From Bacteroidota bacterium (lineage in GTDB: Bacteria; Bacteroidota; Bacteroidia; Bacteroidales; SZUA-534): a DNA stretch of 64,000 bases. Made by a program: the position numbers and the translations under genes. The notes beneath the pieces were generated by a model. That model worked only from the letters and a program-made list of their open reading frames with translations. It had not been told where the DNA came from and searched no databases. Below, one piece after another: positions 4,358 to 16,867 of this stretch (positions are counted from its first letter, which is position 1; each line of letters starts with the position of its first letter). Location: the NCBI GenBank assembly GCA_003250355.1, contig QKGS01000087.1, positions 1,608 to 65,607 on the forward strand, in the 5' to 3' direction.

Positions 4358-7300
4358 CTATTCAGCAGAATAATCCATAGCTGCCAAACGCTTGTAAGTG
4401 TTATATCTCCACTTAGCGTTTTCTTCAGCAGCTGCAAATAATTCAGCAGCTTCGTCAGGATAAGCTTTCATTAATTTAGTATAACGAATCTCACCTTTAA
4501 GGAAATCTTGGAATTTGCTCCAATCAGGCTCTTTTGAGTCTAATTCAAATGGGTTTTTACCTTCTGCTTCTAACATTGGGTTATAACGGAACATATGCCA
4601 GTAACCACACTCAACAGCTTTCTTCATTTCTTGCTGCGATTTACCCATACCACCGCGTAATCCGTGGTTGATACAAGGAGCGTAAGCAATAATTAACGAA
4701 GGACCATCGTAAGCTTCTGCCTCTTTAAGAGCCTTGAAGTATTGAGCCTGGTTAGCACCCATACTTACCTGAGCTACATATACATAGCCGTAAGTAGTAG
4801 CCATAAGACCAAGGTCTTTTTTACGTATTCTCTTACCCGAAGCGGCAAACTGAGCAACAGCACCTACCGGAGTAGCTTTAGAGCTCTGACCACCGGTATT
4901 AGAATATACCTCAGTATCCATTACAAGTACGTTCACATTTTTACCTGTTGCAAGTACATGATCAAGACCACCGTAACCTATATCGTAAGCCCAACCGTCG
5001 CCACCAAATATCCAGTTCGAACGTTTTGGCATCCAGTCTTTGTACGAAAGTATTTCTTTCGCCACAGCCGATGAATCTTTCTCAAGAGCAGCAATAGCAG
5101 CTTCTGAAGCTTTAGCCGAAGCTAATGTATCGGTTAACGTTGCTTTCCATGTCTCCATTGCTTCAACTGTTGCTGCAGCAAATGAACCTTTGTTTTCGTT
5201 GTATAAACGAGCAACTCTCGATTGTAGTTTTTGAGCAGCCATTTGCATACCTAAACCGTATTCAGCGTTATCTTCAAATAGCGAGTTAGCCCAAGCCACA
5301 CCTTTACCGTTTTTGCTTTCGCAATATGGAGTTGAAGGAGCTGAACCACCATAAATTGAAGAACAACCGGTTGCGTTAGCTACTGTCATACTCTCACCGT
5401 AAAGCTGAGTAATTGTTTTAATGTATGGAGTTTCGCCACAACCTGCACAAGCTCCCGAGAACTCGAACAATGGCTGAGCAAACTGTGAATTTTTAACGTT
5501 GATTGTTTTGTCTGCAATTTCTTTAATAGTAACTTTTGCAGCCATATAATCCCAACGAGGTATTTCTACTTCTTGAGAAGCAAGAGGCTTCATTTCAAGA
5601 GCTTTAGTTTTTGCAGGACATACATCGGCACAGTTACCGCAACCTGTACAGTCTAAAGTTGAAACCTGAATACGGAATGCAAGCCCTTCATAACCCTTAC
5701 CGTTTGCTTTAATTGTTTTTGTGCCGGCAGGAGCTGCAGCCAATTCTTTTTCATCTAATAAGAATGGACGAATAGCAGCGTGAGGACAAACGTAAGCACA
5801 TTGGTTACACTGAATACAGTTGCTTTCTAACCACTCCGGTACGTTTACTGCAATACCGCGTTTTTCGTATTGCGATGTACCTGCCGGGAATGTACCGTCT
5901 TCACGTCCGTTAAATGCTGATACAGGTAAATCGTCACCTGCAAGGTTGTTAATTGGGTCTACAACATCGGCTACAAAGTCAGGAACATTCTTACGACGTT
6001 TAGCACCTGCTTTTACTTCAAGTGAAGCCCATGTCGGGTCAATAGCAACCTTAATAACTGCACTTCCTGCATCAACAGCAGCGTAGTTCATTTTAACAAT
6101 ATCTTCACCTTTAGCTCCGAACGACTTAACAATCATTTTCTTCATTTGCTCAACAGCCTTGTCATAAGGAATTACCTCAGCAATTTTGAAGAATGCAGCC
6201 TGCATTATAGTGTTTGTACGGTTACCTAAACCTATCTCCTCTGCAATTTTAGTTGCATTTATAATGTACATACTTATTTCATTTGCAGCTAAGTATTTTT
6301 TTACATCATCGGGTAAATAATTTTTAACCTCGTTCTCGTCCCAAATAGAGTTTAACAAGAATGTACCACCCTTTTTAAGACCTTTTAACATATCGTATTT
6401 TCCTAAATAAGCAGGAACGTGACAAGCAACAAAGTCAGGAGTAGTAACTAAGTAAGGCGACTGTATTTTTTTATCACCAAAACGAAGGTGAGAAGCAGTA
6501 AAACCACCCGATTTTTTAGAGTCGTAAGCAAAATAAGCCTGACAATATTTATCGGTAGTATCACCTATAATTTTAATAGAGTTTTTGTTAGCACCAACAG
6601 TACCATCAGAACCTAAACCATAGAATTTAGCCTCAAAACGTCCTTTAGGAGCTAACGAAATTTCAGGTAATAATGGTAACGATGTGAATGTAACATCGTC
6701 AACAATACCTAAAGTGAAACGATTTTTAGGCTCAGCCAGTTTTAAGTTATCGTAAACACTCATAATCATAGCCGGAGTAGTATCTTTTGACGATAAACCA
6801 TAGCGTCCGCCTACAATAATAGGGGCATTTTCTTTGCCGTAGAAAAGGTCTTTAACATCAAAGTACAATGGTTCACCATTAGCTCCTGGCTCTTTTGTGC
6901 GGTCAAGTACAGCAATACGCTTAACTGTTTTAGGCATAGCAGCCATAAAATGTTTAGCAGAGAAAGGGCGATATAAGTGAACAGCAACAACACCAACTTT
7001 TTCGCCTTTAGCTGTTAAATTTTCAACCACTTCGCGAATAGTATCGTTGATAGAACCAATAGCTACAATTACATTTTCAGCATCAGCAGCACCATAATAC
7101 ATAAATGGCTTATATTCACGACCTGTTATTTTAGTAATTTCAGCCATATAACCCGCTACAATATCAGGAATAGCATCGTAGTATTTGTTAGCTGCTTCAC
7201 GAGCCTGGAAGTAAATATCAGGGTTCTCAGCCAAACCGCGAGTTACAGGGTGATTGGGGCTTAAAGCTCCGTTACGGAATGCCTGTAAAGCTTCCATATC

Positions 7301-7891
7301 AATAAGTGGCTTAAGATCTTCCTGATCAAGAATTTCAATTTTTTGAATCTCGTGCGATGTACGGAAACCATCGAAGAAATGACAGAATGGCACACGACCT
7401 TTAATTGCTGCTAAGTGAGCAACACCTGCAAGATCCATAGCCTCTTGTACTGAACCCGAAGCTAAGAAAGCAAAACCTGTTTGACGAGCACTCATAACAT
7501 CAGAGTGGTCACCAAAAATAGAAAGTGCCTGAGCTGCCAAACTACGAGCCGATACGTGGAATACTCCCGGTAATAATTCACCGGCAATTTTATACATATT
7601 AGGAATCATAAGTAATAATCCCTGTGAAGCTGTATAAGTCGATGTTAAAGCACCTCCCTGAAGCGAACCGTGTACTGTACCTGCAGCACCGGCCTCACTT
7701 TGCATCTCAATTACTTCTACTGTTTCACCGAAGATGTTTTTACGACCTTTTGCTGTCCAGTCGTCAACGTTCTCCGCCATATTCGACGAAGGAGTGATTG
7801 GGTAAATAGCTGCTACCTCGCTAAACATATAAGCAATGTGAGAAGCGGCATAGTTACCATCACACGTGATAAACTTTTTTTCTTTTGCCAT
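4358..7891 (-). CDS. nifJ: Pyruvate:ferredoxin (flavodoxin) oxidoreductase, homodimeric type
   Basis: 1177 aa. YPITPS, EMQSEAGAAG, two CxxCxxCxxxC ferredoxin motifs (CIQCNQC..C, CTGCGNC..C), FSGACAGCGE, and GGDGWAYDIG TPP-binding motif. Confidence 0.97.
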   Translation of the reverse strand: MAKEKKFITCDGNYAASHIAYMFSEVAAIYPITPSSNMAENVDDWTAKGRKNIFGETVEVIEMQSEAGAAGTVHGSLQGGALTSTYTASQGLLLMIPNMYKIAGELLPGVFHVSARSLAAQALSIFGDHSDVMSARQTGFAFLASGSVQEAMDLAGVAHLAAIKGRVPFCHFFDGFRTSHEIQKIEILDQEDLKPLIDMEALQAFRNGALSPNHPVTRGLAENPDIYFQAREAANKYYDAIPDIVAGYMAEITKITGREYKPFMYYGAADAENVIVAIGSINDTIREVVENLTAKGEKVGVVAVHLYRPFSAKHFMAAMPKTVKRIAVLDRTKEPGANGEPLYFDVKDLFYGKENAPIIVGGRYGLSSKDTTPAMIMSVYDNLKLAEPKNRFTLGIVDDVTFTSLPLLPEISLAPKGRFEAKFYGLGSDGTVGANKNSIKIIGDTTDKYCQAYFAYDSKKSGGFTASHLRFGDKKIQSPYLVTTPDFVACHVPAYLGKYDMLKGLKKGGTFLLNSIWDENEVKNYLPDDVKKYLAANEISMYIINATKIAEEIGLGNRTNTIMQAAFFKIAEVIPYDKAVEQMKKMIVKSFGAKGEDIVKMNYAAVDAGSAVIKVAIDPTWASLEVKAGAKRRKNVPDFVADVVDPINNLAGDDLPVSAFNGREDGTFPAGTSQYEKRGIAVNVPEWLESNCIQCNQCAYVCPHAAIRPFLLDEKELAAAPAGTKTIKANGKGYEGLAFRIQVSTLDCTGCGNCADVCPAKTKALEMKPLASQEVEIPRWDYMAAKVTIKEIADKTINVKNSQFAQPLFEFSGACAGCGETPYIKTITQLYGESMTVANATGCSSIYGGSAPSTPYCESKNGKGVAWANSLFEDNAEYGLGMQMAAQKLQSRVARLYNENKGSFAAATVEAMETWKATLTDTLASAKASEAAIAALEKDSSAVAKEILSYKDWMPKRSNWIFGGDGWAYDIGYGGLDHVLATGKNVNVLVMDTEVYSNTGGQSSKATPVGAVAQFAASGKRIRKKDLGLMATTYGYVYVAQVSMGANQAQYFKALKEAEAYDGPSLIIAYAPCINHGLRGGMGKSQQEMKKAVECGYWHMFRYNPMLEAEGKNPFELDSKEPDWSKFQDFLKGEIRYTKLMKAYPDEAAELFAAAEENAKWRYNTYKRLAAMDYSAE

Positions 7892-7939: not shown

Positions 7940-9121
7940 CTAATAGAGGAAACCAAACAACCACAATGGTATTTTATTCCCTGTACCCACTTCGTGCATA
8001 TCAGTTACTATATAAGTATTATCGGAATCGCCGGTAAGTCGCTTATTATTACCTACCTTAAATATTATATTATCATCAATTAAAAACTCACCCTTTTTAC
8101 CTATCCCCGATACTTTAAAATCCTTATTCATCATATTCAGAAAGAATGTTTCTAACAAAGCTTCTCGTGTTGGCTCGGTATGAGAAATAGCATATATTAA
8201 ATTTGTATTTTGTAAATAAATACGTTCAGGTTTCTTCGACGCATCGGCCTCTCCTTCATAAACCAAATTTATTAACCGTGCATTGCGCAAATAGTTCAAA
8301 TAATTCATCACCGTTGCACGACTGGTTTCTATAGAGTTACTTAACTTACTTACATTTGGTGTGTTAGGCATATCTTCCGACAATTCGTACATAAGCTTTT
8401 TAAGCTTAGGCAAATACTTAAGTTCTATTTGCTGAAGAAATGGAATATCTATTTCAAGTGTAAGATTTGCAATTTTGGTTACTGTTTCATTAAAATTGGT
8501 GGCCTCATCGGAGAATGGATAAAAACCTACCTTCAAGTAATCGTTAAAATAAGCTAAAGGCTTCACCTTAAACAATATATCTTTTGCTATTTTCTCGTGA
8601 TAGTTTAAAATATCTTCGATAGTATACTTTGCAAAACTTTGCGATGTTTTGTAATTAAGATATTCCCTAAACGATAACCCGCGAAGATGATAAGGTGTAA
8701 CTTTATCGAACAAGTCGGTATTCTCCTGTTTTAATCGCATTACCGGACTTCCGGTAAAAATAACCTGCAAATTCGGGAAACGATCATAAATATTGCGCAA
8801 AGCCTTTGACCAACCGGGAAATTTAAAAACCTGATCTATAACTAGTGTCTTACCCCCCATTTTCTGAAACTCATCGGCAAATTCAACAAGTCCGTATTTT
8901 GAAAAATAGAAGTTATTCAGGTTTATATACAAACACGATTTATCGTCGTTTCCATATGCGCTTTTTATGTAATCGAGTAAAAAAACAGTTTTACCAATAC
9001 CTCTGGCACCTTTAATACCAATAAGTCGGTTATTCCAGTTAATTTCATTTTTCAGTTCTCGCTTTATTGTAGAATCTACCGATGAAACTAACTCATTATG
9101 TATTTGATAAAATTGTTTCAT
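7940..9121 (-). CDS. AAA_14/DUF4143-type ATP-binding protein
   Basis: Walker A GARGIGKT, Walker B region LVIDQV, VIFTGS, LRGLSFREYL, a winged-helix segment (NVSKLS..IETSRATVMNYLNYL), and KPERIYLQNTNL. Confidence 0.8.
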   Translation of the reverse strand: MKQFYQIHNELVSSVDSTIKRELKNEINWNNRLIGIKGARGIGKTVFLLDYIKSAYGNDDKSCLYINLNNFYFSKYGLVEFADEFQKMGGKTLVIDQVFKFPGWSKALRNIYDRFPNLQVIFTGSPVMRLKQENTDLFDKVTPYHLRGLSFREYLNYKTSQSFAKYTIEDILNYHEKIAKDILFKVKPLAYFNDYLKVGFYPFSDEATNFNETVTKIANLTLEIDIPFLQQIELKYLPKLKKLMYELSEDMPNTPNVSKLSNSIETSRATVMNYLNYLRNARLINLVYEGEADASKKPERIYLQNTNLIYAISHTEPTREALLETFFLNMMNKDFKVSGIGKKGEFLIDDNIIFKVGNNKRLTGDSDNTYIVTDMHEVGTGNKIPLWLFGFLY

Positions 9122-9425: not shown

Positions 9426-9525
9426 TCGGCATTTGCCGAAAGTATGAGAAAGCATAATAATTACGTTTCGGCATTTGCCGGAAGTATGGAAATGCCAAAT
9501 GGTAACCTTCAGCATTTGCCGGAAG
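9426..9525. repeat. Three phased palindromic repeats TC(G/A)GCATTTGCCG(G)AAG
   Basis: Core GCATTTGCC at 9429, 9471 and 9512 (spacing 42 and 41 bp). Copy 1 is the inverted repeat TCGGCA-TT-TGCCGA. Confidence 0.8.
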
Positions 9526-9591
9526 CTATAAGTTTCAAAATTTCATACATCATTAACGAAATTTTATAACAAAAAAACATAAATTACCTCC

Positions 9592-9599: not shown

Positions 9600-9643
9600 T
9601 AATGCAAGATACAATACAGGCTATTTATACAAAATTTTCAATT

Positions 9644-9883
9644 ATGAATATAAAGCAAAACATAAGCATTAGTAAAAACGGGTTTTTATTCGATGCCGAA
9701 ACAGGCGACTCTTATTCCGTTAATAAAACAGCAGCCGAAATACTCAACCTTATGAAAGAAGGGAAAAACGAATCGGAAATAAAAAATGCCATAGTAAGCA
9801 AATTTGAAGTTGACGAACTGGTATTTGAGCGCAACTACTATGAATTTACCAATTTGCTAAAGCATATGAATATTATGTACTAA
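9644..9883 (+). CDS. PqqD-family protein (RiPP recognition element-like); ORF track start is 9602, likely start is 9644
   Basis: 79 aa with the three-strand/three-helix PqqD pattern: GFLFDAETGDSYSVNKTAAEILNLMKEGKNESEIKNAIVSKFEV...F..LL. Confidence 0.85.
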   Translation: MNIKQNISISKNGFLFDAETGDSYSVNKTAAEILNLMKEGKNESEIKNAIVSKFEVDELVFERNYYEFTNLLKHMNIMY

Positions 9884-10025
9884 CGTGTGTTAAATTGTAA
9901 GAAACTTCTCAATGTATTGATATTATAACCTTTGTAATTAGTATCAAGTATCAAGACTTGTATAGTTGTTTTACTTGATATATATCACATATTTTTATTA
10001 ATTGATATAATAATTGTTTTAAACA

Positions 10026-11075
10026 ATGAGTAATAAAAAACAAATAACCATAGCCATAACAGGGCTCAATAACGTAGACAACCCCGGCCCGGGTGTACCT
10101 GTAATACGAGGCATACGTGAATCGAAAGAGATAGATGCCCGAATTATAGGTTTGGCATACGAAAACCTTGAACCGGGCATATATATGGAAGGACTGGTAG
10201 ATAAAACCTACCAAATACCATATCCGTCGGCAGGTAAAGAAGCTGTATGGGAACGAATAATGGAAATACACGCACGTGAACACCTCAATGTAATATTCCC
10301 CAACTTCGATGCCGAGCTGTACACATTTATGCTCATGGAAAACGACCTAAAGGAAAAAGGTATAAATATGTTTATTCCTACCATGCAGCAATTCGAAGAA
10401 CGCCATAAAGCAAATCTCGATAAGTTTGGCGAAAAATACGACATAAAAGTTCCCAAAAGTGTAGCATTAGGCTCACTTAACGACATATCGAAAATACGCA
10501 ACGAATTTGAGTTCCCTGTTCTTGTAAAGGGGAAATACTACGATGCTTTTATAGCCTATAATACCGAGCAAATAATAAACCACTACAACAAAATATCGGC
10601 CAAATGGGGGTTGCCGGTTATAATACAGGAATTTATAAAAGGTACTGAGGTAAATGTTGTTGCACTAGGCGACGGAAACGGCAATACCGTTGGTGCTGTA
10701 CCTATGCGTAAACAATACATAACCGATAAAGGCAAAGCATGGGGCGGCATAGTTATAAACAATGAAAAGCTACTAAAAATAACCCGCGACATGATAGCAA
10801 AAACCCACTGGCGAGGCGGTCTTGAAATGGAAATAATACTTACCTCCGACAATCAATACTACCTTATAGAAATAAACCCCCGTTTGCCGGCCTGGGTATA
10901 TTTAGCAGTAGGTGCCGGACAAAACCTACCCGAAGCTATGGTAAAACTGGCTATGGGACAAGAAGTAGCCCCTTACGAAAATTACACTGCCGGTACTATG
11001 TTTATTCGTTACAGCTGGGATTTAATCGGTAGTATCACCGATTTTGAAAAACTGTCGTTATATGGCGAATTATAG
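10026..11075 (+). CDS. ATP-grasp domain protein (amide/peptide ligase-like)
   Basis: FPVLVKG, PVIIQEFIKGTE and YYLIEINPRL ATP-grasp motifs; N-terminal Rossmann-like IAITGLNNVDNPGPG. Confidence 0.88.
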   Translation: MSNKKQITIAITGLNNVDNPGPGVPVIRGIRESKEIDARIIGLAYENLEPGIYMEGLVDKTYQIPYPSAGKEAVWERIMEIHAREHLNVIFPNFDAELYTFMLMENDLKEKGINMFIPTMQQFEERHKANLDKFGEKYDIKVPKSVALGSLNDISKIRNEFEFPVLVKGKYYDAFIAYNTEQIINHYNKISAKWGLPVIIQEFIKGTEVNVVALGDGNGNTVGAVPMRKQYITDKGKAWGGIVINNEKLLKITRDMIAKTHWRGGLEMEIILTSDNQYYLIEINPRLPAWVYLAVGAGQNLPEAMVKLAMGQEVAPYENYTAGTMFIRYSWDLIGSITDFEKLSLYGEL

Positions 11076-11150
11076 CATTTTTCAAAAACAGTAAATACAT
11101 TATCTTTTAATAAATAATGCCCTAACCGGCTTATAAAAATATACACAACT

Positions 11151-12506
11151 ATGAAAGAGAGATATGAGAAACCGGTAATATCGAGAATAAACGCCGGTAT
11201 ACCCGATAAATTTGGAATGAGCAGCCGAATACGTCAGGTGAGTTCAATTAATAACGTACCTGTTCAACAAATAGTGGAACAATACGGTTCGCCTTGTTTT
11301 GTAATATCGGAACAAACTATACGCAACACTTATAAGGATGCTTACAGAGCCTTTTCAACACGATACCCAAAAGTGCAATTTGCATGGTCGTACAAAACCA
11401 ATTATCTCGATGCTGTATGCCAGGTGTTTCACAACGAAGGTTCATGGGCCGAAGTTGTTTCTATATTTGAATACGAAAAAGCTCTGGCAAATGGTGTTCC
11501 CGGTAACCGAATACTGTTTAACGGCCCCGAAAAATCGGCCGATGACCTTATAAAAGCTGTTCAAAACGGGTCATACATACATATCGACCATTTCGACGAA
11601 TTATATACCCTGATAGGTATAACCCAAAATGCAGATAAAACAGCAAAAGTTGCCATTCGTATAAATATGGATACAGGTGTGTATCCCAAATGGGACCGTT
11701 TTGGTTTTAATCTGGAGAACGGCGAAGCATGGAATGCAATTACCCGCATAATGATGCAGGACAAAATGGAGCTTGTGGGTTTGCACACTCACATAGGCAC
11801 ATATATGATGACACCCGACCCATATGGTGTAGCTGCTGCAAAAATGTCGAAACTGATGATTGACATAGAAAACCGCTTCAACCATACACTAACTTATATT
11901 GACCTGGGCGGTGGTTTTGCATCGAAAAATACCCTTAAAGGGGCTTACTTGCCGGGCAAAGATACCTGCCCATCGTTCGACCAATATGCCGATGCTATTA
12001 CCAATGCCATTATTTCGTCGGGTATTGATATTGACAAACTGCCTACACTTTTCCTTGAAACAGGCCGTGCTCTAATTGACGATGCCGGATACCTGATAGG
12101 TTCGGTAAAAGCAAACAAACGACTATCTGACGGCAGAAAATCACTCGTTATTGATATTGGTGTAAATAACCTGTTTACATCGTTTTGGTACAACCACGAT
12201 ATATTCCCGGCATTTACCGAAAGTAAAGTATTAGAAGACACTACCATATACGGACCGCTGTGTATGAACATTGATATAATTCGTGAAGCTATACTCTTCC
12301 CGCCACTAGAACCAGGCGATAACGTGGTGATTGAACGTATTGGTGCTTACAATATGACCCAATGGCTACAGTTCATTACATTACGACCCAACATAGTGTT
12401 AATAGACACTAAAGGACAAATGCACCTGATACGAAAACAAGAAACTATCGACACATTCAAAGCTCAGGAACAATACCCTGAACATCTGAAACCAAAGGAA
12501 ATTTAA
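11151..12506 (+). CDS. PLP-dependent fold-type-III decarboxylase (diaminopimelate/ornithine decarboxylase family), substrate unknown, with an N-terminal extension
   Basis: WSYKTNY (PLP lysine), ILFNGPEK, KFG-like RFG, LHTHIGT, DLGGGF, LETGRALI, GPLCMNIDI and GAY motifs. Confidence 0.88.
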   Translation: MKERYEKPVISRINAGIPDKFGMSSRIRQVSSINNVPVQQIVEQYGSPCFVISEQTIRNTYKDAYRAFSTRYPKVQFAWSYKTNYLDAVCQVFHNEGSWAEVVSIFEYEKALANGVPGNRILFNGPEKSADDLIKAVQNGSYIHIDHFDELYTLIGITQNADKTAKVAIRINMDTGVYPKWDRFGFNLENGEAWNAITRIMMQDKMELVGLHTHIGTYMMTPDPYGVAAAKMSKLMIDIENRFNHTLTYIDLGGGFASKNTLKGAYLPGKDTCPSFDQYADAITNAIISSGIDIDKLPTLFLETGRALIDDAGYLIGSVKANKRLSDGRKSLVIDIGVNNLFTSFWYNHDIFPAFTESKVLEDTTIYGPLCMNIDIIREAILFPPLEPGDNVVIERIGAYNMTQWLQFITLRPNIVLIDTKGQMHLIRKQETIDTFKAQEQYPEHLKPKEI

Positions 12507-12624
12507 GATATGAGATATGAAATTTAAATAAAGGTGTAAGGAAAACGGAGACAGAAAATAGAAACTTGTAACAGTCTCCGGTCTCCTTGCAACCCTGTAA
12601 CCCTGAAACCTCAACTATTAATTA

Positions 12625-14853
12625 ATGAATATAACAAAACAAAAAATATCAATACTTCTGACATCTGTACTAAACAGCTATTCGCAGGTATTTTTTTCAA
12701 ACAATATATTCCTTGCCATAATACTGCTTACGGTAAGCTTTTTCGATTATGTATCGGGTATTAGCGGCTTACTTTCTGTGGTAACCGGGGTGTTATTGGT
12801 TGAAGCCATGGGTATGGATAAGCGTACTATAAAAAGGGGGTTATACGGATTTAACAACCTGCTGGTTGGACTTGGTATAGGGTTAAATTTTCAGTTGTCG
12901 TTCGAGCTTATAGCAATAGTAATATTTGCTTCGCTGCTTACAAGTTTCTTCACATTTGCCTTACAAGGCATATTAGGAAAATATAACCTTTCGTATTTAA
13001 GTATACCATTTTTGTTTGCTATATGGATATCGCTTTTGGCAACTAACCGTTTTAGTGCCTTGGGGTTAAGTATTAGGGGAATATATTCATACAATGAGCT
13101 ATATTCTTTAGGGGGAGTTAGGCTGCTCAACATATATGAAAGTATAGAGCAGAGCCTGCCATTTGCTGTTGTTGTTTACTTCAAATCGCTTGGAGCTATA
13201 TTTTTTCAATACAGCATATTGGCAGGCATTCTTATTAGTTTAGGCATATTGGTATATTCACGAATAGTGTTTTCACTCTCGGTACTTGGATATTTTATGG
13301 CATATTTATTTTACAAAATATTTGGTGCCGATGTTACTCAACTTAGTTACAGCTATATAGGCTTTAACTACATACTGTCATCAATTGCCATTGGCGGTTA
13401 TTTTCTGTACCCATCGTTATATTCGTACCTTGCATCAATGCTCATAATGCCACTGGTGGTAATGATATCATTTGGCTTTGAGCAAATACTAATACCGTTC
13501 AGGCTGGCATTATATTCACTACCATTCAATATGGTTGTACTTATGTTTTTGTATGCTTTACGTTTCAGAACACACAGAGCCACAAAGCTTCGCGAAATAG
13601 TTGTACAACAAAATACACCGGAGCAAAACCTGTATCTGCAAACCAACTATGTAAACCGAATGCGCTCATCGGGTATAGTGTCGGTATCGCTACCGGTAAT
13701 GGGCAACTGGACAGTTAATCAGGGATACAATGGCAAACACACCCATAAAGGCGACTGGCGTCACGGTTTGGACATGGTAATAACCGACGACAAAGGCAAA
13801 GAATATCAACATGAAGGAAATATACTAACCGACTATTATTGCTACGGCAAAAGTGTTACAGCCCCTGCCGATGGTTATATTGTTGAAGTAGTAAACAATA
13901 TTGACGAAAATGCTGTTGGCGAAATAAATATATTGCAAAACTGGGGCAATACCATAGTTATAGAGCATTATCCGGGGTTATATTCACAGGTTAGCCACTT
14001 AATGAAAAACTCTGTAACAGTTAAAAAAGGCGATTTTGTAAAAAAAGGTCAGAACATAGCCAACGTAGGTAATACAGGGCGTTCGCCCTACCCTCACCTC
14101 CATTTTCAAATGCAGGCTTCACCATATATTGGCAGCAAAACTATTGACTATCCGCTAAGTAACTATATAACCTGTTTTAACAATGAGTGCAGATATCATG
14201 CCCACGGAACACCTGCCGAAGGGCAAATTCTGAGCAATGTAGTAACTACTCCTATTATAGCCAAGGCATTCAAATTTTCGCCCGGGCAGCAATACAGCTA
14301 TTCTATTTCATTCCCCGACGGTAAGCCTGAACGTTTCATTAACCTAGAACCCGAATATACTTTTGAAGTGCACATAGACATATATAAAAACACATACCTT
14401 GAATGTAAACAAACGGGTGCAAAAGCATGGTTCTATACCGACGGGCAAATGCACTATTTCTCAAACTATACCGGCAACAAAAACACATTCCTGTTTTACT
14501 TTATGCTTGCACTATTCAAAGTTGAACTTGGCTATTACAGCAATATTGTAATAAAAGATGAAATACCTGCTCACTTTACTTTTTCAGGATTAAAACTTAC
14601 AATTCAGGACTTTTTTGCACCATTTTTCCGATTTATAAAATCGAATTACACACTTAATTTCCAAAACATTGACGATGAATTTTCACCACAAAAAGTACAA
14701 ATACATTCTGAAATACAAAATATAGTTAACCTAAACAAACTTGAACAACTCACATTCAATACTACTATCGACAATAATGGTATTAAAGAAATTACAGTAA
14801 ATATTAACAGCGATATATTTCAGGCCAAATGCTTAAAAAAGGGACATTTATAA
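12625..14853 (+). CDS. Urea-transporter-family membrane domain fused to an M23 peptidase domain
   Basis: The N-terminal ~315 aa are hydrophobic with urea-transporter signatures (SYSQVFFSNN, GLYGFNNLL, LSIPF, GAIFFQ, IGFNYIL, YSLPFN). The central region has M23 features (THKGDWRHGLD, VTAPADG, WGNTIVIEH, SHL, VGNTGRSPYPHLHFQ). Confidence 0.85.
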   Translation: MNITKQKISILLTSVLNSYSQVFFSNNIFLAIILLTVSFFDYVSGISGLLSVVTGVLLVEAMGMDKRTIKRGLYGFNNLLVGLGIGLNFQLSFELIAIVIFASLLTSFFTFALQGILGKYNLSYLSIPFLFAIWISLLATNRFSALGLSIRGIYSYNELYSLGGVRLLNIYESIEQSLPFAVVVYFKSLGAIFFQYSILAGILISLGILVYSRIVFSLSVLGYFMAYLFYKIFGADVTQLSYSYIGFNYILSSIAIGGYFLYPSLYSYLASMLIMPLVVMISFGFEQILIPFRLALYSLPFNMVVLMFLYALRFRTHRATKLREIVVQQNTPEQNLYLQTNYVNRMRSSGIVSVSLPVMGNWTVNQGYNGKHTHKGDWRHGLDMVITDDKGKEYQHEGNILTDYYCYGKSVTAPADGYIVEVVNNIDENAVGEINILQNWGNTIVIEHYPGLYSQVSHLMKNSVTVKKGDFVKKGQNIANVGNTGRSPYPHLHFQMQASPYIGSKTIDYPLSNYITCFNNECRYHAHGTPAEGQILSNVVTTPIIAKAFKFSPGQQYSYSISFPDGKPERFINLEPEYTFEVHIDIYKNTYLECKQTGAKAWFYTDGQMHYFSNYTGNKNTFLFYFMLALFKVELGYYSNIVIKDEIPAHFTFSGLKLTIQDFFAPFFRFIKSNYTLNFQNIDDEFSPQKVQIHSEIQNIVNLNKLEQLTFNTTIDNNGIKEITVNINSDIFQAKCLKKGHL

Positions 14854-16259
14854 TTCTGCTTTTAATATTTGTTACTAATATAAAAGCTCAGAATACTTAC
14901 AATTATTCTATTGATACTATAACTTACAACCAATACCTTAACGGTAAATGGGAAGAACTTTTTGAATCAGTAACCAAAGCTAATACATCGGGAGTCAGCT
15001 TTTATTACCTTACACTGCGAGGTGCTTTTGCTGCATATTACACACAACACTACAGTAAAGCTGTAACAATGTTCAGGCAAGCCGAACAACAGCAACCATT
15101 AAATTATACAGCCAAAGAAATACACCATTTGTCGGCAATATATGCCGGTATGGAGCTTGAGCAAATTCGAACCTACGACTCATTGCCTGCAACAACAAAA
15201 CCTAATTACAAAAATCCTCACCACAAGCTTTTTGAATCGGTATGTGTAGAATCGGGAATAAATACCAATAACAATTTTAACAATATTATTAATACCAAAC
15301 CAAATGTAAATAATGCCTTGTATGCTGAACGAAATTTGCATAAACAAACACTCTATAACGGTATTATATTAACAAACTCCATAAACAAAAAACTTAAATT
15401 AATACAGTCATTTCAATATATTTATGTGAGCCGGGCAACCAGTTTTTATATTGGAAATACTACACCAGATGTTACAACACCGATAACTCCAACCAACCCA
15501 TATAATCCATTACCTCCTCCACCAAATCAGCCACGTTTAAAAGCGGCTTCGTTAACAACCGGCACCGAAGCACATTTCAATACACAATCAACTCAGATTC
15601 AATACTTTTTAAGTTTAAAATACAACATTAACGACAAAGTACTTATAACCCCTGCTTTTACTTACGTAAATTATAATACAGGTACAGTAAATATTGATAC
15701 CAACAGTACAGGCATTTATTATTCAAACCACTTTAACCAAAAAGGAACTCAAACATATTTAATATTAAATATTGCCGGAGTATTCAACAGAAGTATATTT
15801 GCTGTAAACACAAATTACCTTATAGCAGAATACATTTCCCGATGGCAAAATGGTATTAGTGCAAAATTGTATCCATTTGCGTCAAAAAGGCTTTATACCG
15901 AAGGTGAGTTTTACATAAGTACAGGTAGTAACATATCCACAACACAGGTATTGAAAGGTAGTATCGGATATTATTTTAATAATATTTCGATTGAGGCTAA
16001 CTATACAACCGGTACACTATCAAACTTTGCCGACAATAACGGATTATACATTTACAACACAAAAGAGACAATAAATACAACAAAAGGTGTATCAATAACA
16101 GCTAATATTATCAAAAACAAGCTGTGGTTATCGGCTTATTACAAGTATATTACATATAATTCAGCGTATACTGTATATATAAATTCTACATCAAATAACA
16201 ATATCAATTTTGAACATAACAACCACTCAATAACAGGAGGTATAACATGGAAATTTTAA
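14829..16259 (+). CDS. Hypothetical secreted/outer-membrane protein (helical N-terminus, probable beta-barrel C-terminus)
   Basis: Signal peptide ending IKA-Q, alternating aromatic/polar beta-strand pattern, terminal GGITWKF. It overlaps both neighbouring genes, consistent with an operon. Confidence 0.65.
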   Translation: MLKKGTFIILLLIFVTNIKAQNTYNYSIDTITYNQYLNGKWEELFESVTKANTSGVSFYYLTLRGAFAAYYTQHYSKAVTMFRQAEQQQPLNYTAKEIHHLSAIYAGMELEQIRTYDSLPATTKPNYKNPHHKLFESVCVESGINTNNNFNNIINTKPNVNNALYAERNLHKQTLYNGIILTNSINKKLKLIQSFQYIYVSRATSFYIGNTTPDVTTPITPTNPYNPLPPPPNQPRLKAASLTTGTEAHFNTQSTQIQYFLSLKYNINDKVLITPAFTYVNYNTGTVNIDTNSTGIYYSNHFNQKGTQTYLILNIAGVFNRSIFAVNTNYLIAEYISRWQNGISAKLYPFASKRLYTEGEFYISTGSNISTTQVLKGSIGYYFNNISIEANYTTGTLSNFADNNGLYIYNTKETINTTKGVSITANIIKNKLWLSAYYKYITYNSAYTVYINSTSNNNINFEHNNHSITGGITWKF

Positions 16260-16867
16260 AACAAATCACATTAGTTTCAGTATTGTCAATACTTAGTTTT
16301 ACTATTGTTTCACAAGAAACAGAACCAATGGCAAAAGCTTTTATAAAGAGTTTTGAACTCGAAAATACAGGAAAATACAGCGAAGCTGCCGATATTATTA
16401 TAAGTTCATACAACAAAGAGAGTTATGAGTGCAATATGCGTCTGGGCTGGTTATACTACAAAGCCAACAACTACGATAACTCTGCCAAATACTACTATAT
16501 AGCCGGTAAGCTTATGCCCTATTCTGTTGAAGCAAAACTTGCATTAACCCTTCCACTATCGGAACAAAACAAATGGGACGACATAATGCAAGTATATAAA
16601 GATGTGCTGGCAATAGACTCAAAAAACTACAAGGCATTATATAACCTTGGGCTTATATACTATAACCGCAGCCTGTTTTACGCAGCATTCGACAACTTTA
16701 AAATACTCAACAATCTTTACCCTACCGATTACAGCGCATCGCTTATGTATGCGTGGAGTAATGTAATGCTTGGAAAAAACAGGGAAGCAAAAGTACTGTT
16801 CAACAAAATACTTTTGCTCTATCCGTCCGATAAATCGGCAACTGAGGGGTTGAGTATTTTGGAATAA
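16247..16867 (+). CDS. Tetratricopeptide-repeat protein, exported
   Basis: Signal peptide ending IVS-Q. TPR-like repeats: MRLGWLYYKANNYDNSAKYY, ALYNLGLIYYNRSLFYAA, KVLFNKILLLYPSD. Confidence 0.8.
   Translation: MEILKQITLVSVLSILSFTIVSQETEPMAKAFIKSFELENTGKYSEAADIIISSYNKESYECNMRLGWLYYKANNYDNSAKYYYIAGKLMPYSVEAKLALTLPLSEQNKWDDIMQVYKDVLAIDSKNYKALYNLGLIYYNRSLFYAAFDNFKILNNLYPTDYSASLMYAWSNVMLGKNREAKVLFNKILLLYPSDKSATEGLSILE

Follow-up and report, generated by a model that had tools for sequence, protein, structure and literature searches.

A six-gene operon was analysed in a 64,000-nucleotide stretch of DNA from a Bacteroidota bacterium (Bacteroidales, lineage SZUA-534; GenBank assembly GCA_003250355.1, contig QKGS01000087.1, positions 1,608 to 65,607 of the forward strand), which is called the window here and is numbered from its first letter. 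The operon encodes a PqqD-like protein (g1) resembling the recognition elements (RRE) of pathways for peptides made by ribosomes and modified post-translationally (RiPP), an ATP-grasp ligase (g2), a pyridoxal 5'-phosphate (PLP) dependent decarboxylase (g3), a urea transporter (UT) type channel fused with an M23 metallopeptidase (g4), and two exported proteins (g5 and g6). The gene set is one conserved unit, far beyond what chance would give, and its core recurs across phyla. The operon probably makes and releases a small compound, and at a little less than an even chance it would be an undescribed module at the inner membrane, in which ligation is followed by decarboxylation and de-acylation. 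No publication on this system was found by literature searches aimed at it.

Organization and conservation of the operon

All six genes lie on the + strand between 9644 and 16867, and the open reading frame (ORF) coordinates of the window bear out the original prediction that they are co-oriented and that the last three overlap. The intergenic gaps g1-g2, g2-g3 and g3-g4 are 142, 75 and 118 nt, meanwhile g4 and g5 overlap by 25 nt and g5 and g6 by 13 nt. Pfam and NCBIfam profile scans, used for the family assignment of the window proteins, agreed with the domains proposed before (PqqD, ATP-grasp, PLP decarboxylase, UT/M23 and TPR). The ORF of g1 could open at 9602, and its 21 homologues all start at the methionine of 9644, the start that had been called.

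Conservation was followed in 80 loci from other species, in which ORFs were called and searched with the six window proteins; the alignments used below hold 21 orthologues of g1, 21 of g2, 73 of g3, 71 of g4 and 26 of g5. Genes g1 to g3 were found in 48 of the 49 loci having at least 4.5 kb upstream of g4, g5 and g6 were found in 65 of the 66 loci having at least 2.3 kb downstream, and 43 of the 44 loci with both flanks held all six genes in identical order, as a self-contained unit would. The overlap of g4 and g5 was kept in 40/44 loci and that of g5 and g6 in 42/43. Genes for radical SAM proteins, pqqB/C, urease and lasso cyclase were seen neither in the window nor in the fetched loci, so the system is not pyrroloquinoline quinone (PQQ), urease or lasso machinery, as had been supposed.

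Full-length homologues of the g4 fusion number more than 2,900, and at least 564 genomes, each representing a species, encode a g4 relative. When the phylum was sampled evenly, full-length g4 was present in about 30 of 400 genomes (~7%), none of them from the window's own order, thus the distribution is patchy. The hosts include Bacteroidales, Marinilabiliaceae/Prolixibacteraceae, Flavobacteriales, Cyclobacteriaceae, Chitinophaga, Rhodothermaceae, Cyclonatronaceae, Chlorobiota and a metagenome-assembled genome (MAG) of Neomarinimicrobiota, and at least one cultured isolate, Mariniphaga sediminis SY21, carries the operon (locus L052).

Table 1. Features of the operon and of its upstream region in the window
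Feature	Position	Strand	Description
g1	9644-9883	+	Stand-alone PqqD/RRE-like protein, 79 aa
g2	10026-11075	+	ATP-grasp carboxylate-amine ligase of an uncharacterised subfamily, 349 aa
g3	11151-12506	+	Alanine-racemase-fold PLP decarboxylase, predicted conjugate-acting group, 451 aa
g3 N-terminal tail	11151-11243	+	Residues 1-31, leader-like motif
g4	12625-14853	+	UT-type channel, M23 metallopeptidase and beta-rich C-terminal domain, 742 aa
g4 UT channel domain	12661-13557	+	Residues 13-311
g4 M23 domain	13687-14139	+	About residues 355-505, predicted cytoplasmic
g4 C-terminal domain	14131-14850	+	Residues 503-742, beta-rich, weak LolA-type likeness
g5	14829-16259	+	Exported protein, 476 aa; N-terminal TPR, putative barrel-like C-terminal part (~320 aa)
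g6	16247-16867	+	Exported TPR protein, 206 aa
Three direct repeats	9427..9530	+	~21 bp each, TCGGCATTTGCCG(A/G)AAGTATG-like, TCGGCATTTGCCGRAAGTATG; read directly from the sequence

The decarboxylase g3

The Pfam families Orn_Arg_deC_N and Orn_DAP_Arg_deC were matched by g3, and its solved relatives ranked by score as FigC/FslC (7kh2, 207 bits), diaminopimelate decarboxylase (DAPDC, 139 bits) and BtrK (89 bits). It scored below the cut-offs of both the lysA model (220 bits, cut-off 297.9) and the FslC model (224 bits, cut-off 500). A true LysA (406.8 bits, above the cut-off) was encoded on contig C36 of the same genome, so g3 is not the sole or housekeeping LysA.

The active-site residues discussed for FigC in PMC7857480 were placed on the alignment of g3 and its 73 orthologues. 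Of these, g3 retains the PLP lysine K82, H214, the G253-255 loop, R306 and C371, and with C371-M372 its catalytic loop has the Cys-Met pair of FigC. In both proteins, methionine takes the place of the acidic residue after the catalytic cysteine, which binds the distal amine in DAPDC, lysine/ornithine decarboxylase (L/ODC) and arginine decarboxylase (ADC). R343 of DAPDC, the binder of the distal carboxylate, is T343 in g3, and the citrate contacts T330, H357, R387 and N389 of FigC are W346, I374, Q404 and L/M406. These positions, kept and changed alike, are invariant or nearly so across the orthologues.

FigC has been grouped with SbnH, AcsE, MccE and BtrK, all of which act on conjugated amino acids (PMC7857480), and by score ranking, not by a tree, g3 is assigned as a paralogue of this conjugate type. 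Because the binders of charged groups are replaced, the pocket would suit a side chain which ends neutral, is probably amide-linked and is fairly hydrophobic; it would suit neither free diaminopimelate (DAP), Lys or Orn nor a citryl conjugate. The decarboxylation of basic amino acids by a fold-III enzyme, which had been expected for g3, is thus not favoured, with the residues for a free distal amine or carboxylate lost.

The ligase g2, the adaptor g1 and their fusions

Matches of g2 were found to ATPgrasp_Ter (PF15632), ATP-grasp_3 (PF02655) and CPSase_L_D2 (PF02786), together with PRK12767-like matches far under the cut-off. It is the most conserved protein of the unit, with 74% mean column identity among its orthologues. 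No close solved structure was found for g2 by sequence; its profile reaches generic ATP-grasp enzymes, with the large chain of carbamoyl-phosphate synthetase as the best structural match (E 3.5e-12). When 1.84 billion cluster representatives were scanned for distant relatives at E<=1e-30, the family comprised 221 clusters, including many tandem ATP-grasps of ~710 aa and gene fusions. A synthetase of the NRPS-independent siderophore (NIS) type was found neither in the window operon nor in the 80 loci, the ligase being an ATP-grasp enzyme.

Two kinds of fusions were revealed. PqqD::ATP-grasp, with PqqD at the N-terminus, was present in three clusters (P0230, P0271 and P0272) from three data sources, and ATP-grasp::decarboxylase in 11 clusters of 858-934 aa, 60-62% identical to P0162, whose records come from Logan, ENA, NCBI, JGI and Metaclust. 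Since these Rosetta-stone fusions link the three cytoplasmic proteins, g1, g2 and g3 are taken to work together.

As for g1, it matched PF05402 (34.8 bits, cut-off 23.4) and only weakly the lasso B1-type PqqD models of NCBIfam (28.6 bits, cut-off 70). Its beta-sheet half (NIAISExGFVFDPxTGDSYSLN) is strongly conserved among the orthologues and its C-terminus is variable. A LysW-like carrier role of this C-terminus was considered and rejected, being unlikely for a part that is not conserved.

A leader-like tail on g3

Judged by the alignment starts, the N-terminus of g3 is about 20 residues longer than those of FigC, BtrK and DAPDC. This tail carries the motif [FY]5-x-x-P8-x-I10 ... G16-x-P18-x-K20-F21-G22, in which P8, K20 and G22 are invariant (73/73 orthologues) and I10 nearly so (71/73). 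The pattern [FY]xxPx[LI] within the first 15 aa occurs in 0.77% of the ORFs of the own genome. To our knowledge, RRE domains have so far been known only as readers of ribosomal precursor peptides. The leaders of actinobacterial lasso peptides carry YxxPxL, which is read by B1-type RREs (PMC6784204); the tail of g3 matches it with YxxPx[IL], and no other leader-like peptide is conserved in the unit. No second copy was seen, as a profile of the tail run against the six frames of the own genome matched g3 only.

The motif is also kept in the decarboxylase of a Myxococcales locus and in that of L091, a contig of a third lineage described below. In all ten ATP-grasp::decarboxylase fusions that were read (P0162 and nine others) it lies inside the linker, for example ...YERPSIVRHHSGVGSRFG..., and this fusion clade keeps YxxPx[IL], a PqqD gene and the same active-site signature. 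The position aligned with K20 is arginine in all ten (…GSRFG, …GNRLP). Because of this lysine-to-arginine change, K20 is disfavoured as a covalent acyl carrier and a binding role is favoured.

The channel fusion g4

In g4, Pfam recognized UT at residues 13-311 (186 bits) and Peptidase_M23 at residues 407-497 (64 bits). The AlphaFold2 model of the protein reached a pLDDT of 88.8 and a pTM of 0.79, and its first 330 residues superpose on dvUT, the urea channel of Desulfovibrio vulgaris, with a target-normalised Foldseek TM-score of 0.82-0.86; the score against the urea_trans_yut model was 132 bits (cut-off 274.6). In one genome (G016) the channel and M23 halves are adjacent ORFs. Of the 12 filter residues described for dvUT (PMC4357013), 7 are identical in g4, T130 and T294 are changed to Ser and V188 to Ile, meanwhile the outer site (So) is altered by the replacement of E187 by A191 (Ala in 70/71) and of L293 by Y297 (Tyr or Phe in the family). 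All 12 positions are strongly conserved in the g4 family, and because of this the domain is likely a working pore, narrow and of urea type, with a changed outer site.

The M23 domain matches LytM/M23 domains in Foldseek, and its H374, D383, H458, H491 and H493 are invariant, with H380 in 63/71 orthologues. Its first motif is HxxD (H380-x-x-D383) instead of HxxxD, followed by an insert of ~20 aa and preceded by H374, and the C-terminal motifs S-H-L and P-H-L-H-F are conserved. Because the catalytic histidines and aspartate are invariant, an active hydrolase is predicted, not a degenerate activator of LytM type.

In solved channels of the UT family both termini are cytoplasmic. Past residue 320 of g4 the Kyte-Doolittle value never exceeds 1.16 and the linker RFRTHRATKLR is strongly basic; with cytoplasmic termini and no later membrane segment, the M23 domain and the C-terminal domain should therefore be cytoplasmic. 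In addition, the head of the channel is interchangeable, being either M23 or SIR2 (with or without GNAT). M23 enzymes hydrolyse N-acyl amide bonds, and SIR2 enzymes carry out NAD-dependent N-epsilon-acyl-lysine deacylation. The swap suggests a shared job, the cleavage of N-acyl amides on the cytoplasmic side, and the need of SIR2 for cytoplasmic NAD gives independent support for a cytoplasmic head. M23 would thus very probably face the cytoplasm and not the cell wall. For the system as first imagined, spanning from the cytoplasm to the outer membrane, the envelope parts are kept and a periplasmic M23 is not favoured: there is no hydrophobic segment after the channel, the linker is basic, and SIR2 replaces M23 elsewhere.

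The C-terminal domain of g4 was modelled with a pLDDT of 92.1 and a pTM of 0.88. Its Foldseek matches were weak (E 4e-4, TM 0.27-0.36) and fell on LolA-superfamily proteins, LprF, DUF1849, RseB and CRABP, giving a hint of likeness to LolA-type binders of hydrophobic ligands.

The exported proteins g5 and g6

No family match was obtained for the window copy of g5. In 16/26 of its orthologues, matches to TPR_1/TPR_2 fell within the N-terminal ~120 aa. The sequence opens with a signal peptide and closes with HSITGGITWKF; its C-terminal part gave no family or structure match, and the last ~320 aa may form an outer-membrane barrel. Multiple TPR families were matched by g6, which begins with a signal-like segment.

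The core in other phyla

The core, composed of the PqqD-like protein, ATP-grasp, decarboxylase, UT::hydrolase and a TPR partner, recurs across phyla. In a Myxococcales MAG the order is PqqD-ATPgrasp-decarboxylase-UT::M23-TPR-TPR, and in a Rokubacteria MAG TPR lipoprotein-PqqD-tandem ATPgrasp-decarboxylase-UT::SIR2. The contig of the third lineage (L091) reads TPR-[PqqD::ATPgrasp]-degenerate grasp-decarboxylase-UT::SIR2::GNAT, and in the fusion clade PqqD-[ATPgrasp::decarboxylase] is followed by an SRPBCC/DUF5939 protein. The signature of the decarboxylase differs slightly with the type of head (GAYN[MV]TQW[ML]QF versus GAYT[ID]S[NQ]S[ML]QF), so that the products of the M23-type and SIR2-type systems may differ.

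Two proteins of these loci were observed besides. The one between PqqD::ATP-grasp and the decarboxylase (L091:4980-5852, 290 aa) has no Pfam match; it is probably a degenerate second grasp module, with a C-terminal part (…GFGSWISLAAAAGQDLALEYVRLALG) resembling the C-terminus of ATP-grasp, and in this it parallels the tandem ATP-grasps of other lineages. The one next to the fused gene (L094:10897-12948) is a protein of 683 aa with SRPBCC (Polyketide_cyc) and DUF5939, a fold that binds hydrophobic ligands.

Proposed mechanism

In the proposed module, g2 would join a carboxylate to the non-alpha amine of an amino acid, or its side-chain carboxyl, as an amide, and g3 would then strip the alpha-carboxyl from this conjugate, with the same logic as FigA/FigC and BtrJ/BtrK. 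The RRE-like g1 would dock on the YxxPx[IL] tail of g3 and couple the ligase to it. The cytoplasm-facing M23 on the UT-type channel could cut the amide of the product or of a protecting group, and the freed compound, if small, uncharged, polar and urea-sized, may leave through the UT pore, or a larger product beside the pore. The periplasmic and outer-membrane leg would be served by g5 and g6. A pathway that forms amides or amines and has envelope parts, which the original prediction had put forward, was graded as the most reasonable reading.

A bolder form of the module is rather unlikely as a whole: a new membrane-docked biosynthetic machine, in which a UT channel carries an interchangeable amide-cleaving head (M23 in Myxococcales and in the Fibrobacterota–Chlorobiota–Bacteroidota (FCB) group, SIR2, alone or together with GNAT, in other phyla) that frees the product of the ligase and decarboxylase at the pore, and in which an RRE reads YxxPx[IL] in a full-size enzyme, in hundreds of diderm species.

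Several points weigh against the proposed module. Its basis is gene association, fusions, residue patterns and folds, the chemical steps being inferred from the families of the proteins. A product of amino-acid or peptide size does not fit through the narrow UT pore, so export would hold only for a very small and neutral one, and the channel could as well import urea, ammonia or an amide, or act as a trimeric anchor. The decarboxylase of Rokubacteria is without the tail motif despite a PqqD gene, and in the fusion-clade locus the UT::hydrolase gene is not adjacent. The motif and PqqD are retained even where ligase and decarboxylase are already fused, so the role of g1 must go beyond simple tethering.

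Alternative explanations

A true RiPP whose precursor is unlinked or too variable to detect is improbable. In such a pathway g1 would present a leader, g2 would add an amino acid or amide, as PGM1 of pheganomycin or the graspetide enzymes do, g3 would decarboxylate a C-terminal or side-chain-linked residue, and M23, at the membrane, would take the leader off. Peptides are bound by all PqqD-like RREs characterised so far, and fusions of an RRE to an enzyme, such as P0230, are a typical trait of RiPP enzymes. For the pheganomycin pathway, which depends on an ATP-grasp enzyme, a predicted RRE is listed by RRE-Finder, and a membrane transporter with a fused peptidase brings to mind the exporters that cleave leaders. 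A precursor is what is missing: ORFs of 12-75 aa in and around the operon were clustered for the loci with g1 and g4, and none was conserved, those that recurred being shadows of conserved genes. This goes against the RiPP-like system imagined at first, as do the six-frame search of the own genome with the tail profile, which found nothing but g3, the UT pore, which a peptide cannot pass, and the enzymes, which (with 74% for g2) are far more conserved than usual in clusters for diversified peptides. Somewhat less probable still is that g3 serves as its own carrier, with an acidic amino acid loaded by g2 through its side chain on K20, the tail swinging into the active site, and M23 or SIR2 freeing the product. 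In its favour, K20 never varies among the 73 FCB orthologues and recurs in the Myxococcales locus (in L091 the lysine is at position 20, one residue nearer the tyrosine). Two analogies add to this: SIR2, which replaces M23 on the channel, is an N-epsilon-acyl-lysine deacylase, and the g3 relative BtrK has as its substrate an amino acid bound to a carrier, the glutamate on BtrI. The arginine of the ten fusions, however, stands where motif, PqqD and signature are all kept, and such a change fits binding and not a nucleophile; the tail of Rokubacteria has no motif at all.

Just as doubtful as the self-loading tail is an editing of peptidoglycan precursors or of an envelope polymer on the cytoplasmic face, in which a Ddl/Asl-like ligase would extend the stem peptide by one residue, g3 would decarboxylate the free D-centre of stem meso-DAP and the membrane-anchored M23 would trim the stems, with g5, g6 and the optional secreted protein described below in the envelope. 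All three enzyme families have members in peptidoglycan chemistry, as is generally known and as the M23 and Ddl matches recall; the loss of charged-group binders in g3 would also fit a DAP amide-bonded on both sides, the envelope partners are conserved, and an Acyl_transf_3 gene is inserted in some loci. But no DAPDC comes as near to g3 by score as FigC does, the exchange of M23 for SIR2 (GNAT present or absent) is hard to fit with stem trimming, the RRE and the conserved urea-type pore are left without a role, and the patchy occurrence (~7% of the sampled phylum genomes) does not suit core wall synthesis. The proposed module also has a specific version, considered unlikely to a slightly greater degree, in which its product is a metallophore or another secreted chelator, an amide-linked decarboxylated compound of polyamine type made under a metal-sensing regulator, as are rhizoferrin, staphyloferrin B and vibrioferrin. 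The nearest characterised decarboxylases, FigC and SbnH, are siderophore enzymes, an AraC-type regulator with an HMA-like domain lies upstream in 27/80 loci, and DUF2202, TonB-dependent receptor and RND genes are nearby in some loci. In g3, though, every citrate-binding position of FigC holds a neutral or hydrophobic residue, the HMA match is weak (E 0.05) with a cysteine pair that is not conserved, neither an NIS synthetase nor a dedicated uptake receptor is conserved in the unit, and a chelator would not pass the UT pore. Hardly credible, finally, is ordinary nitrogen metabolism brought together by chance or loose linkage, with a urea uptake channel, a wall M23 hydrolase and a lysine or polyamine decarboxylase, as the database names "urea transporter", "peptidase M23", "diaminopimelate decarboxylase" and "carbamoyl-phosphate synthase large subunit" would have it. 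Order, overlaps and fusions are conserved across phyla, the true LysA is elsewhere while g3 falls under both cut-offs and lacks the DAP-binding residues, and neither the window nor the fetched loci showed a urease gene. A chance association is contradicted by the conservation data.

Comparison with known systems

The operon works most like FigA/FigC and BtrI/J/K, and is a member of neither. The same ligate-then-decarboxylate logic, a joining of a side chain to a carboxylate and the removal of the alpha-carboxyl, is found in rhizoferrin synthesis by FigA/FigC (FslA/FslC in Francisella), in SbnH of staphyloferrin B and in AcsE. A Cys-Met pair in the catalytic loop and the absence of the DAPDC arginine are common to FigC and g3; in contrast with FigA/FigC, the ligase of the operon is an ATP-grasp enzyme and not an NIS synthetase, and the citrate contacts are replaced. 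The siderophore clusters have no RRE, UT::hydrolase or TPR partners. The BtrI/BtrJ/BtrK set for butirosin in Bacillus circulans likewise combines a small protein, an ATP-grasp enzyme and a DAPDC-like decarboxylase acting on a tethered amino acid, and a hydrolase later takes off its amide-linked protecting group, in parallel with the M23 step proposed here. Unlike BtrI, a phosphopantetheinyl carrier, g1 has the PqqD/RRE fold, gave no PP-binding match and has no conserved attachment residue; the operon is without an aminoglycoside context, and the butirosin module without a membrane channel.

With the RRE-dependent RiPP systems (lasso B1, pheganomycin PGM1) the operon shares a PqqD-like domain that is stand-alone or enzyme-fused, whereas it has no precursor gene and its motif is on a full-size enzyme or inside a fusion. 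None of the class-defining tailoring enzymes (lasso cyclase, protease B2, radical SAM, YcaO, LanB/C) was encoded by the six genes or by their conserved flanks. Graspetides are characterised by an MvdC/D-type ATP-grasp with a precursor, and g2 matches ATPgrasp_Ter and CPSase-like models only; urea transporter and M23 are not mentioned in the phylogenomic survey of graspetides (PMC8939145), nor contexts with ATP-grasp or decarboxylase in the RRE-Finder paper.

By fold, and for M23 also by the catalytic residues, the UT and M23 parts of g4 are taken as members of their families, in a context not described for those families. The UT/SLC14 channels (dvUT, UT-B) have the same fold and most filter residues are kept, but in g4 the channel is fused to a hydrolase predicted to be cytoplasmic, its outer site is changed, and no urease partner was seen. 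With the M23/LytM endopeptidases (LytM, lysostaphin, MepM, ShyA, Csd1/2) the fold and the C-terminal catalytic motifs are shared; the head of g4 differs in its predicted cytoplasmic location, its altered N-terminal motif, its insert, its attachment to a channel and its exchange with SIR2.

Upstream region and neighbouring genes

The operon lies between an AAA_14/DUF4143 ATPase gene of divergent orientation (7940-9121, minus strand) and the genes hisG/hisD, from 17462 on. The three direct repeats upstream of g1 (Table 1) are spaced by 41-42 bp and each holds the dyad CGGCA-TT-TGCCG, which makes them a candidate operator, with an uncertain part in the system. The motif was not found upstream of g1 in 57 other loci, and does not recur throughout the own genome. 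As a family-wide operator the repeats were rejected, the motif being specific to this window. A scan for sigma-70 promoters and terminators stayed at background level, and such a scan is uninformative for this phylum.

The AraC-type regulator with the heavy-metal-associated (HMA) like N-terminal domain has an unlinked orthologue in the own genome (C37:8198-8776, 60% identical to the copy of locus L011). Its N-terminal ~60 aa are HMA-like and carry GMICSSC; GMxCxxC is present in this copy and in that of L011.

A secreted protein of ~265 aa with a tail of the type IX secretion system (T9SS) was encoded in 31/80 loci, 11 of them with the gene between g2 and g3 and 18 after g6. It has a conserved N-terminal domain of unknown fold, as in L011:5331-6140 and L017:14157-14945. 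The window operon has no such gene, and a weak homologue exists at C28:10892-11725 in the own genome. Small genes resembling those of phages or mobile elements, with coiled-coil, LuxR-type and Xre-type helix-turn-helix (HTH) products, lie beside this homologue (C28:7286-10718). The other optional genes are DUF2202 (13/80 loci) and Acyl_transf_3 (about 6 loci), and genes for TonB-dependent receptors and resistance-nodulation-division (RND) proteins occur near the operon in some loci.

Elsewhere in the window, an ORF of 1177 aa (4358-7891, minus strand) looks like a pyruvate:ferredoxin/flavodoxin oxidoreductase. It contains two cysteine motifs of 4Fe-4S type, CIQCNQCAYVCP and CTGCGNCADVCP, and is compatible with an anaerobic lifestyle.

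Significance

The unit is widespread, with the channel fusion of FCB type in at least 564 species genomes, and further lineages, Myxococcota and Methylomirabilota among them, have the core. Behind the unit there is probably an unknown metabolite, together with an unknown coupling of cytoplasmic synthesis to the envelope. If the proposed module is true, RRE domains would have a role beyond RiPP biosynthesis, directed at a motif within an enzyme, hydrolases would use UT/SLC14 channels as platforms, and M23 peptidases would work in the cytoplasm. Since an isolate, Mariniphaga sediminis SY21, carries the operon, the question is open to genetics and metabolomics.

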